IMG/VR virus record: IMGVR_UViG_2698536485_000022
DNA: 15,456 bases
Source: a virus
Taxonomy: Duplodnaviria > Heunggongvirae > Uroviricota > Caudoviricetes
Strand: one strand, 5' to 3'
A program made the translations under genes and the position numbers. The number at the start of each line of letters is the position of its first letter. Positions within the stretch are counted from its first letter, which is position 1. Under the pieces are notes generated by a model. That model was not told where the DNA came from, made no database searches, and saw nothing but the letters and a program-made list of their open reading frames with translations. Positions 4,837-14,548 of this stretch are shown here, piece by piece.

Positions 4837-5199
4837 TTAATGACCTGCTGCGCGTAGTTTTCCGTCAGGTTCACCGGCAAGAGTCAGTAATTGTCCCTGG
4901 TCTTCCTGCAGAATAGTCAGGCGACCACCGCGATTGACATACATCGGCGTTTCGGTGGTGTCTTCTTCGGAAATTTTCCCGCGGTTAGTCGGGCGAACAT
5001 ATGAGAGTTTGTGTTTGATTTTCACACGGTTCTCATCAAATGGTTCGATTTCCAGGTTGAGTGAGACCTTACCTTTGGTTTTCGTGTTCATCACACCGGA
5101 AGCGACTTCACTGAGAACTGCGCCGATTTTGGTTTCAAATACGCCGCCGTCCAGCTCCCCGATAAATGCCTGCACATCAGTACTGCGTTCGCTAGCCAT
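4837..5199 (-). CDS. YfdP-like small prophage protein (120 aa)
   Basis: Track ORF 4837-5430 trimmed to ATG 5199, which has AGGAG 7 nt upstream (MASERSTDVQAFIGELDGG...). The 77-codon upstream extension overlaps structured RNA and looks non-coding. Confidence 0.55.
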   Translation of the reverse strand: MASERSTDVQAFIGELDGGVFETKIGAVLSEVASGVMNTKTKGKVSLNLEIEPFDENRVKIKHKLSYVRPTNRGKISEEDTTETPMYVNRGGRLTILQEDQGQLLTLAGEPDGKLRAAGH

Positions 5200-5247
5200 T
5201 TTGCTGCTCCTCATCATATCGACCCTGCAAGGTCGGTTGGTTTCTCC

Positions 5248-5336
5248 ACAAAACAGAGAAGAACACCTGCGGTGGCAGCCGCCCGGATGGATTGGGTTAT
5301 GAGCCCGTCGTCCGGTGATGCTCTTCTCTGTTTTGT
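5248..5336. repeat. perfect 15-bp inverted repeat (ACAAAACAGAGAAGA / TCTTCTCTGTTTTGT) flanking a 59-bp GC-rich spacer with nested hairpins
   Basis: Arms at 5248-5262 and 5322-5336 are exact reverse complements. The spacer contains CCGGA ... TCCGG and GCGG ... CCGC pairings. Lies 50-140 nt upstream of the yfdP-like start. Confidence 0.8.
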
Positions 5337-5400
5337 AAAAAGAGCGGTACCAGCCGGAAGCAAGGGTACAAACTGGTACCGCCAAAGCAGTGGCTGTTGT
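5334..5400 (-). ncRNA. candidate DicF-like sRNA ending in an intrinsic terminator (tL-like)
   Basis: Minus-strand RNA forms GCGGUACCAG-(19 nt loop)-CUGGUACCGC (5344-5353 / 5373-5382) followed by UCUUUUUAC. The 5' part CUUUGGCGGUACCAGUUUGUACCC resembles the DicF core UUUGGCGGUAUCAGUUUUACUCC as I recall it. Sits downstream of the pL-like promoter, as dicF does relative to dicA. Confidence 0.35.
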
Positions 5401-5799
5401 GGTGGGGTTGTCACTCAGGCGTATGGTCAACCTGACAATCCGGTGTCCTCAACGGGGAAAGAGTAACCCCGCCATACTTACCGCCGCGCCATTTCGCGGA
5501 TTACCACAACGCTGAGAGCACTTAGCCAGTTACGGCACCACACTTTGTCGCGGCTCCATAAATGCCCTCATCGTTGCCCCCTGGTCTCTTCCCTGGCGTC
5601 AAACCGGATCGCCGCGCTGGTTAGGCGTCTTATCAGCATCCTCATTGACTTGCACATTCCGGCTACCTGGTTTGTTTGCCCGAGCAAGGAGTGGATTATC
5701 CCCTTTAACGTCACCAGACCGCTAACGACGCATGTGCCATACGCCGTGTTACAACCAAATTTTGTTTAATCTTGCCTGTGTTGTGTTTCTTTTAGATAC

Positions 5800-5827
5800 A
5801 TTATGTATCCCGAGGGTACATTGTCAA
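5800..5827 (-). promoter_or_regulatory. candidate early-left promoter (pL-like) with overlapping palindromic operator
   Basis: On the minus strand: -35 TTGACA (5822-5827), 16-nt spacer, -10 CATAAT (5800-5805). Palindrome GATACA-TTA-TGTATC (5795-5809) overlaps the -10. GGTACA half-site at 5815-5820. Confidence 0.45.
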
Positions 5828-5831
5828 GTAT

Positions 5832-5854
5832 AAAAAAACCTGCCGAAGCAGGTT
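5832..5854 (-). terminator. rho-independent terminator ending the cI transcript
   Basis: Minus strand AACCTGC-TTCG-GCAGGTT followed by seven U, 12 nt after the cI stop codon (5866-5868). Confidence 0.65.
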
Positions 5855-5865
5855 ATAAATATTGA

Positions 5866-6540
5866 TTAGGCCTTTATTATGTATCTTCTTGGTTTTCCTG
5901 AGAAAATCACTGTACCAATTATAGAGCAATTACCGTTGATCTTAATGTAAGGTTCAGGCCAGTTTGGGTTTAATGCTTTGAGGTAACGCTGTGTTCCATC
6001 TTCTATCAACCGCTTGAAGGTGGTTTCGCCTGTATCGTGCATCAATGCAATAACGTCGTCACCGTGGCAGGCAGGGACTTCAGGATCAACAAAAATCATG
6101 TCTCCCGGGCGGTACTCATCAATCATTGAATCACCAATCACCCGCAAGATATAAGTCATTTCGCCACAGGGTACAGGGCAGGGGTAAGTTTCTGCTGTGC
6201 TCAAATCAACCTCAGAATAGCCAACTTCTTTCCATGCTCCGGCCTGTACCCATGATATGACAGGGACTAACGTTATTTGTTTGTTAGTGATTGAAACATC
6301 AGGTTTTTTTGTGATGTTCGTGGTCTGGTGTTCTTGATCAAGCCATCCGACAGGCAGGTCGAAACATTTTTCGATGTGCCGCGCCATGCTGTCACCGATA
6401 TTTTTAGTAGCACCATCTCCCATAAACCTGCTGGTCTGGGTTGGCTCGCGATCAATCATGGTGGCAAAGGAAGAATTCCCGCCAACACCATCTCTCAGTT
6501 TTCTGGCGTTAGACCGCCGGATGTCATGGACTGTTTTCAT
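5866..6540 (-). CDS. cI: CI-type prophage repressor (N-terminal HTH, C-terminal S24 LexA-like autopeptidase)
   Basis: 224 aa from ATG 6540. C-terminal domain has the Ala-Gly cleavage site (VQAGAW), catalytic Ser in VIGDSM and Lys in TFKRL. Divergent from the cro-like gene. Confidence 0.85.
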   Translation of the reverse strand: MKTVHDIRRSNARKLRDGVGGNSSFATMIDREPTQTSRFMGDGATKNIGDSMARHIEKCFDLPVGWLDQEHQTTNITKKPDVSITNKQITLVPVISWVQAGAWKEVGYSEVDLSTAETYPCPVPCGEMTYILRVIGDSMIDEYRPGDMIFVDPEVPACHGDDVIALMHDTGETTFKRLIEDGTQRYLKALNPNWPEPYIKINGNCSIIGTVIFSGKPRRYIIKA

Positions 6541-6630
6541 AAAGAAATTAAAACCTTTGTACCGATAAGGTACAAGTATCTTGAAGGTTCATCTCAATCA
6601 TGTAATATGTATACCGGAAGTACATATTGT
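6541..6630. promoter_or_regulatory. divergent immunity-region promoter/operator segment (pRM / pR equivalents)
   Basis: Perfect palindrome TTGTACC-GATAA-GGTACAA at 6557-6575 and related TACA-TAT-TGTA at 6621-6631. Candidate pR hexamers TTGAAG (6581-6586) and TAATAT (6603-6608). Confidence 0.55.
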
Positions 6631-13911: not shown

Positions 13912-13987
13912 GGCCCTTTAGCTCAGTGGTGAGAGCGAGCGACTCATAATCGCCAGGTCGCTGGTTCAAATCCAGCAAGGGCCACCA
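13912..13987 (+). tRNA. tRNA-Ile (anticodon CAU, ileX/ileZ-like); tRNA-Met not formally excluded
   Basis: 76 nt: GGCCCTT acceptor stem, TAGCTCAGTGG D-arm, anticodon loop CTCATAA (CAT at 13945-13947), T-loop TTCAAAT, 3' ACCA. Close to the E. coli ileX sequence as I recall it. Confidence 0.85.
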
Positions 13988-14067: not shown

Positions 14068-14144
14068 GCGTTGTTAGCTCAGCCGGACAGAGCAATTGCC
14101 TTCTAAGCAATCGGTCACTGGTTCGAATCCAGTACAACGCACCA
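14068..14144 (+). tRNA. tRNA-Arg (anticodon UCU)
   Basis: 77 nt: acceptor GCGTTGT/ACAACGC, anticodon stem ATTGC/GCAAT with loop CTTCTAA (TCT at 14102-14104), T-arm ACTGG-TTCGAAT-CCAGT, 3' ACCA. Confidence 0.85.
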
Positions 14145-14548
14145 CACCACACTTATCTGCCCTGACTCTCTTTTGCGGGCTTTTTATTACAGGAAAGACA
14201 CCGGACAGTGAAATGTTAAATGCCTCACAATTCAGGCAGTTGACTGTTGCCTGACATGCTGAGCGTTTGTTAAAAAAATCCTGCATGATGAATCCCCCTG
14301 AGCGGCGGGGCATAATGACAGATGTTTGGTTGCGTATTGTATAGGCAAGTTGCGGATTCTGTCTGGTCATTGCAGAATTCACCGGGAGGCACCCGGCATC
14401 ATGCTGTATACAGAGATTAGGCATATATCCAGGCTTCTCATCGCAGGAGCCTTTTTACATGCAAAAAAAAGCCCGAGTGGGTTCGGGCAACAGCATGAGA
14501 TACTTGCATTGTCATTTTTATCGTGTGGATTTTAACCAGGGTTTATAA

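Follow-up and report, generated by a model that had tools for sequence, protein, structure and literature searches.

DicF of the Qin prophage and KilS of the Rac prophage, both small RNAs (sRNAs) of Escherichia coli K-12, are among the closest described systems for the element considered here, a hairpin in an untranslated leader on the minus strand of a 15,456-nt stretch of Caudoviricetes DNA (IMG/VR record IMGVR_UViG_2698536485_000022; the whole stretch is referred to below as the window). RNase E makes the 5' end of DicF, and the 3' end results from termination in the 53-nt form and from RNase III in the 72-nt form; the 3' part pairs with ftsZ and pykA, and the 5' part with xylR (PMC5069750). 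KilS (b4833) was predicted from Hfq RIL-seq (RNA interaction by ligation and sequencing) data and confirmed by northern blot. Its transcription start site (TSS) maps to 1418502, with an RNase E site at 1418471, just 5' of its seed, and its description makes no mention of DicF; the links of KilS to RprA and DicF set out below were not found in that paper (PMC8175672). A third point of reference is the seed CRCUGCUUUU, common to the sigma-E sRNAs RybB, MicV and VrrA (PMC6694218).

E. coli strain 13E0725 carries a prophage to which the window is 100% identical. On sequence grounds, its hairpin belongs, so far unannotated, to the same RNA family as DicF (Qin) and KilS (Rac), and the members of this family have in common a GGCGG...CCGCC terminator hairpin with a U-tail and a place in the untranslated leader of a repressor-controlled early-left operon. 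The parts of the element are as follows.

5384-5395, minus strand: variable 'seed cassette' AGCCACUGCUUU, in which 5394-5384 is identical to RybB nt 1-11
5343-5383, minus strand: DicF/KilS-family hairpin, assigned from its fold, covariation and covariance model R1
5337-5342, minus strand: U-tract CUUUUU (C5342, U5341-U5337), the expected 3' end of terminated transcripts

The hairpin and its conservation

The initial annotation had described a DicF-like segment followed by a stem and a U-tract. The segment, the 24-mer CUUUGGCGGUACCAGUUUGUACCC, is indeed on the minus strand (5387-5364), as are the stem and U-tract, but it supplies the 5' arm of the stem rather than preceding it. On that strand the 5' arm GGCGGUACCAG occupies 5383-5373 and the 3' arm CUGGUACCGCU 5353-5343, with a 19-nt loop (5372-5354) between them. 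The stem of 11-13 bp (about -20 kcal/mol) is followed by UCUUUUU, which in sequence and fold is an intrinsic terminator; the terminator scan missed it because that scan permits loops of up to 8 nt. The 59 nt from 5395 to 5337 fold with -21.5 kcal/mol (z = -3.13), a stability equaled by one of 200 shuffles.

Related loci were fetched via homology to YfdP, the product of the first downstream open reading frame (ORF), and the same hairpin was found 5' of yfdP in E. coli, Shigella, Mangrovibacter, Enterobacter, Atlantibacter, Leclercia, Kosakonia, Phytobacter, Pseudocitrobacter and Providencia. In a 12-sequence alignment across genera, 90% of the cells of the 11-pair helix are paired, four pairs are changed on both sides, and the covariation score was reached by none of 500 shuffles. 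While the stem covaries, the loop retains a U-rich/YCC/UGA pattern in the family alignment, and the U-tract is kept in every family member, with five U in DicF and KilS as well. Six loci from several genera (L091, L101, L106, L110, L113 and L115) have a loop insert of about 25 nt that comprises an inner stem (AUCUUC.../...GAAGAU) and the conserved single-stranded motif GAUAAUGUUCUG. The longer hairpins of Mangrovibacter and Providencia also contain a mini-ORF (M-K-I-V-F), which was rejected, since neither its frame nor its stop is conserved and only this nucleotide motif is. In the two Providencia loci (L113 and L115), an ORF ending just 5' of the hairpin resembles CsrA (…VRIGIEAPK…IHRKEIY…), judged by eye from our own translation, and a phage-borne CsrA adjoining an sRNA-like element is possibly worth attention.

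The same comparisons bear on a coding explanation of the conserved stretch, by which it would either extend YfdP at the N-terminus (ORF 4837-5430, minus strand) or belong to the plus-strand ORF 5272-5466 annotated in phage Ayreon. Both ORFs exist and are annotated in some records. The Prokaryotic Genome Annotation Pipeline (PGAP), however, starts yfdP with the ATG at 5199, behind the ribosome binding site (RBS) GAGGAG, and homologues align from residue 1-5; the length differences in the loop and in the apical part are not multiples of three, and the helix substitutions are compensatory. We consider a coding role the most improbable of the readings discussed here.

Relationship to DicF and KilS

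The DicF core given in the initial annotation is correct: K-12 dicF reads UUUGGCGGUAUCAGUUUUACUCC, which the window matches at 16 of 17 contiguous bases (UUUGGCGGUA[U/C]CAGUUU), and the 3' foot CCGC(C/U)CUUUUU matches as well. Upstream, about 115 nt (5510-5396) are collinear with the sequence directly 5' of dicF, at 88% mean column identity in an alignment of the window, Qin and phage Evi, so that the two hairpins follow the same upstream module and the claim of an equivalent position in the early-left operon holds. Relative to Qin, 19 nt (UAUCAAUUUUCUGGUGACG) are cleanly missing from the window, namely the RNase E site together with DicF nt 1-12. The DicF 5' end UUUCUGGUGACG, its xylR-pairing region, is thus absent from the window and covered exactly by this gap. 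The ftsZ-pairing 3' arm and loop differ also (CUGCUCUGCCGCC in DicF and CUGGUACCGCU in the window), DicF nt 33-52 (UCCGUGACUGCUCUGCCGCC) having been replaced.

The Rfam DicF model (RF00039), to which the annotation had pointed as a check, gave no match at its gathering threshold (48 bits), nor any at E<=10 within 5150-5650, while the controls K-12 dicF and KilS scored 76.7 and 39.1 bits. Of 20 related loci, not one attained the gathering threshold, and the rest of Rfam gave noise only at the locus (every match E>1). A second covariance model, R1, was built from 12 yfdP-leader hairpins, without DicF or KilS; its E-values are rough. In 5 kb of Qin, the sole significant R1 match is K-12 dicF (27.7 bits, E=4e-6; next best 8.2). 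In Rac, R1 scores 54.9 bits at the 3' part of the annotated sRNA KilS, in e14 69.2 bits inside the 'ymfH' coding sequence (CDS), and in O157 typing phage 9 (L006) 35.5 bits at a hairpin directly after tRNA-Arg. About 650 kb were searched, among them the rybB, rprA and dsrA loci, which have terminators of their own, and unrelated matches there stayed at or below 17.6 bits. The score of the window hairpin itself (62 bits) is circular because the window was used in building the model.

Three independent lines, namely conservation with covariation, the R1 family model and synteny, thus bear out the proposed relatedness to DicF. They identify the hairpin as an allele of the dicF locus in which the DicF 5' end has been lost and the stem remodelled and compensated. 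It is more closely related to KilS and the e14 copy than to DicF. The two K-12 relatives are located as follows.

L121 8406-8503, minus strand: kilS of the Rac prophage, 16 nt of which are identical to the conserved RprA region AUUGCUGUGUGUAGUC
L120 5191-5262 (NC_000913.3 ~1201190-1201261), minus strand: e14 family member inside ymfH, with an RprA-like seed, the hairpin and a long helix

The RNase E site of KilS lies 1-2 nt 5' of its 16-mer. In the Hfq RIL-seq data set, 'ymfH' has an sRNA-candidate score of 0.113, ranking just above dicF at 0.103, and occurs in 81 chimeric fragments, in all of which ymfH is second (PMC8175672). The K-12 gene model ymfH is probably a mis-annotated RNA, the ORF being spurious and the RNA real.

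The support for kinship does not extend to the target that the initial annotation had assigned to the element. A divergent DicF that represses ftsZ and causes filamentation would fit the homology, the same operon position and the shared stretch UUUGGCGGUAxCAGUUU, but DicF-type targeting of ftsZ is not supported: besides the silence of the Rfam model, the loss of the RNase E site with DicF nt 1-12 and the replaced pairing region, the best predicted duplex between the candidate and the ftsZ leader (-15.5 kcal/mol) is weaker than 86% of shuffles, in a test of low power that did not separate DicF itself from shuffles. A windowed version of RNAduplex was used for this comparison, long duplexes being meaningless. 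We regard this reading as very unlikely.

The seed cassette and the predicted RNA

Family members differ mainly in a short cassette between the constant junctions CACAAC and U(U)GGCGG, of which three kinds stand out.

Window allele: cassette AGCCACUGCUUU, in which GCCACUGCUUU equals RybB nt 1-11
KilS, e14 and many loci of other genera: cassette AUUGCUGUGUGUAGUC, equal to the conserved RprA 16-mer, with an extended alignment score of 40 against a shuffle maximum of 21
DicF: cassette formed by its own 5' seed, which resembles DsrA nt 5-21 (14/16, tentative)

Among the fetched yfdP loci with classified flanks, 52 are of the RybB type, 38 of the RprA type and four of a third type, and the RybB-type cassette was found behind three different upstream modules. 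The tentative DsrA resemblance is between the DicF 5' flank AUCA-AUUUUCUGGUG (L003 2868-2895, K-12 Qin) and AUCAGAUUUCCUGGUG of DsrA; its score was reached by 0.9% of shuffles, uncorrected for 12 comparisons.

K-12 rybB starts with GCCACUGCUUUUC. The RybB-like 11-mer occurs once in the window, and 0.1% of shuffles attain its alignment score. Within it lie 9 of the 10 nt that make up the sigma-E sRNA seed, and the cassette to which it belongs is mostly unpaired in the predicted 59-nt RNA. The similarity is confined to these 11 nt, the Rfam RybB model (RF00110) giving no match at E<=10. A target in cis for the seed was considered and rejected: GCAGUGGC has no other occurrence in the window. The RybB seed motif GCCACUGC... 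is present, and the evidence on its targets consists of predicted pairing with mRNAs of outer-membrane proteins (OMPs), in duplexes of 7-8 bp that are the same for the window cassette and RybB.

ompC -50..-41: window cassette -17.2 kcal/mol, RybB -17.4 kcal/mol (predicted)
ompA +23..+32: window cassette -17.9 kcal/mol, RybB -17.5 kcal/mol (predicted)
ompW +12..+20: window cassette -14.7 kcal/mol, RybB -15.5 kcal/mol (predicted)

With moderate confidence, we propose that the element is a partial terminator, the product of which would be an Hfq-type RNA of about 59 nt that mimics RybB and represses OMP mRNAs upon induction or infection. In sequence and fold, it is built like an Hfq-type small RNA whose 3' end is set by an intrinsic terminator. 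After derepression, part of the transcripts from the leftward (pL) promoter would end at the U-tract (5337-5341), and cleavage behind the upstream tRNA-like module would free the RNA (5395-5337); such cleavage has precedents in the RNase E sites at the 5' end of DicF and 1-2 nt before the KilS seed. The released RNA would carry a free RybB-type seed and an Hfq-type 3' hairpin, be bound by Hfq, and repress RybB targets such as ompC, ompA and ompW, not ftsZ. Transcripts that read through would be cleaved within the long helix just 3' of the hairpin, which would free yfdP mRNA. Any host targets are more likely to be OMP mRNAs than ftsZ because the free 5' arm copies the RybB seed, and such copying of a host seed has a precedent within the family, the KilS-type cassette being equal to the RprA 16-mer.

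Several observations weigh against this proposal. Neither a promoter (sigma-70 scan) nor an AU-rich RNase E site is evident beside the seed. The 11-mer can be derived from the Qin-type GCCCUCUGU...UUUGG by the 19-nt deletion and a few substitutions, so the RybB match could be fortuitous and merely carried along with a module that is common in prophages. The window allele occurs only in E. coli and Shigella, where the cassette is without variation, and selection on it is therefore not assessable. In the precursor fold, AGCCA is paired with UGGCU upstream of the tRNA-like module. The seed comparison comprised three host sRNAs, picked after the sequence had been inspected, and Rfam lists neither DicF nor RybB at the locus.

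Much of this would suit an element that acts only in cis, as an intrinsic terminator or attenuator of tL type with a processing signal, which limits and times the expression of yfdP and the genes downstream of it; the released RNA would then be functionless and its RybB identity a by-product of deletion. A hairpin with a U-tract between pL and the first ORF, its constant company of a long downstream helix and the yfdP RBS, a mosaic boundary at the 5' foot of the hairpin, an 11-mer explicable by deletion relative to Qin and the lack of a promoter found nearby are all in keeping with such a role. Yet three K-12 relatives on the same scaffold are Hfq-associated small RNAs or sRNA candidates, the loop pattern persists alongside a covarying stem, an unusual combination in a plain terminator, and the cassette of KilS and e14 is a 16-nt RprA seed, not chance. 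We judge an action in cis alone, the main rival of our proposal, to be possible but less probable.

A broader and distinctly tentative extension is that lambdoid and related prophages share one Hfq-binding terminator scaffold, the DicF/KilS hairpin, and that between the two junctions 5' of it they exchange cassettes copied from the seeds of core host sRNAs (RybB here; RprA in KilS, e14 and many genera; perhaps DsrA in DicF), by which a phage would switch on selected host sRNA regulons at induction or infection. If this is true, outer-membrane proteins, several of which are phage receptors, would be shut down in the present case.

The leader, distribution and comparison with known systems

The surroundings of the element were mapped as follows.

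5800-5827 (5827-5800), minus strand: pL-like sigma-70 promoter TTGACA-16-CATAAT, from the promoter scan
5802-5821, in the pL spacer: 20-nt operator-like palindrome TATGTATCCCGAGGGTACAT / TATGTAYNCCGRNRGTACAT, one of three copies in the window
5511-5747, minus strand: leader 'module X', a conserved structured non-coding stretch of about 240 nt, from similarity and fold
5396-5510, minus strand: tRNA-like four-way-junction module of about 115 nt, closed by GUUGUGGU/ACCACAAC, from a fold with a closing stem and three arms
5243-5341, minus strand: long helix (about 27-30 bp) beginning in the U-tract, with a conserved apical domain GACGGGCUCAUAACCCAAUCC (-63.7 kcal/mol, z = -6.2)
4837-5199, minus strand: yfdP, the first downstream ORF, as annotated by PGAP

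According to the PGAP annotation of the identical genome, the cI/LexA-like repressor gene ymfK lies at 5866-6540 on the minus strand and the cro-like ymfT on the plus strand; the 666 nt between ymfK and yfdP are non-coding. The terminator of ymfK (5854-5837) directly precedes the pL-like promoter, which the initial annotation had also recognized and which matches the consensus at 11 of 12 positions. The palindrome in its spacer recurs twice between ymfK and ymfT (6573-6592 and 6606-6625), and for this reason we take the promoter to be of the repressor-controlled pL type. The hairpin is about 455 nt downstream, within a leader that as a whole folds with z = -4.8.

Module X is similar to sequences in P1, P7 and D6 (after trnI and before ban) and in O157 typing phage 9 (just before tRNA-Arg), has no match to any Rfam family, and in its Kosakonia prophage copies shows differences that look compensatory by eye. 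An antisense RNA of the C4/immI type was considered because part of the leader matches P1 and P7, but was rejected, since the P1 match sits after trnI and before ban, not at immI, and no Rfam C4 match was obtained.

A long and structured leader, in which CGCUCUUUUUAC resembles boxA and in which no N gene is visible, could also be read as a site of processive antitermination, either nut-like (boxA CGCUCUUUUUA and then the hairpin) or put-like as in HK022. The boxA sequence is CGCUCUUA or UGCUCUUUAACA. The boxA-like CGCUCUUUUUA is not conserved, however, homologues reading CCGCCCUUUUU, CCGUCCUUUUU or CCGCAAUUUUUU, and a sequence comparison by blastn gave no similarity to HK022 21000-32500, its immunity and early-left region. 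Antitermination at this site is highly improbable.

The tRNA-like module also stands directly 5' of dicF in K-12 Qin and phage Evi, and its slot holds real tRNAs elsewhere, namely tRNA-Arg in O157 typing phage 9 and a tRNA in L103. ARAGORN detected no tRNA or tmRNA in 5000-6000, including this module, which may be a degenerate tRNA serving as a processing signal. In the long helix, 12 of 39 predicted pairs show compensatory changes among 15 loci of several genera; the apical GACGGGCUCAUAACCCAAUCC is nearly invariant, and GGAGAAAC on its 3' side is invariant. The helix is probably a site of RNase III-type processing that separates the small RNA from yfdP, and its apical domain may serve another function as well. 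A comparable stem of 15 bp stands directly after dicF in Qin, which fits the 72-nt DicF made by RNase III.

In e14, the module 5' of the family hairpin is instead a core of STnc100 (GUGGUGAAU...CACCGGGAGGCACCCGGCA), which is also present 3' of dicF and kilS (weak Rfam matches of 34 and 28 bits). The late region of the window carries tRNA-Met(CAU) at 13912-13987 and tRNA-Arg(UCU) at 14068-14144, both on the plus strand, followed by STnc100 (175 bits) at 14254-14462 on the plus strand and, back to back with it, the anti-GcvB sRNA AgvB (56.6 bits, just at threshold) at 14464-14523 on the minus strand.

Of 5426 complete E. coli genomes, 2485 have matches to a 73-nt query comprising the element, in 3287 places altogether. 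In 1393 genomes a place covers at least 80% of the query, the length expected of a window-type allele, which is carried by about a quarter of these genomes. The element is never annotated as an RNA, and sometimes lies under a 'hypothetical protein'. The element is also found in phages Ayreon, cdtI, mEp460, SfIV and SfII and in Stx2c-converting phages. A search of the literature gave nothing on RNAs from yfdP or ymfH, nor on prophage sRNAs that resemble RybB or RprA, though Faubladier & Bouche 1994, on dicF-like prophage sequences, may already describe some variants. Until now DicF has counted as one isolated prophage sRNA and KilS as a new sRNA without relation to it; on the present comparison they would be two alleles of one widespread modular locus, with a third, that of the window, carrying the RybB seed. 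If the RNA is expressed, prophage induction would directly repress the major porins and OmpA, which would matter for superinfection exclusion, envelope stress and antibiotic permeability. A single scaffold that comes with three natural seeds would also offer a simple system for studying how sRNA seeds evolve and move.

Set beside the known systems, the window element agrees with RybB in the 11 nt of the seed but has no homology to it outside them and a different terminator; it is served by a prophage pL promoter rather than a sigma-E promoter (no GGAACTT-N16-TCAAA was seen upstream by eye, the scan having covered sigma-70 promoters only), and its seed would be at the 5' end of the RNA only after processing. 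RNAs of the 3'ETS-leuZ type are 3' trailers of tRNAs that bind Hfq, 3'ETS-leuZ itself being a sponge for sRNAs. The predicted RNA is similar in being a short trailer of a tRNA-like unit that ends at an operon terminator, as is the hairpin directly after a real tRNA-Arg in O157 typing phage 9, but the window trailer bears a sense copy of an sRNA seed.

With DicF, the window element shares the position in the early prophage operon after the same tRNA-like module, the hairpin foot (UUUGGCGG...CCGC-C-UUUUU), the first loop bases GUUU and a long helix before the next ORF; it differs in a perfect stem with a loop of 19 nt (11 nt in DicF) and in the downstream gene, which is yfdP in the window and dicB in Qin. 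KilS has the same scaffold and U-tail in the 5' untranslated region of the first early-left gene, with a short single-stranded seed directly 5' of UGGCGG. Its cassette is AUUGCUGUGUGUAGUC, as in RprA, rather than AGCCACUGCUUU, it has its own mapped TSS and RNase E site, and it lacks the tRNA-like module. The e14 copy differs in its RprA-like cassette, its STnc100-like upstream module and the loss of yfdP, its leader running into xisE; with the window it has in common nearly the same stem (GGCGGUACCAG/CUGGUACCGCC), the U-tract, the downstream long helix, a small hairpin and the same ymfK/ymfT immunity region.

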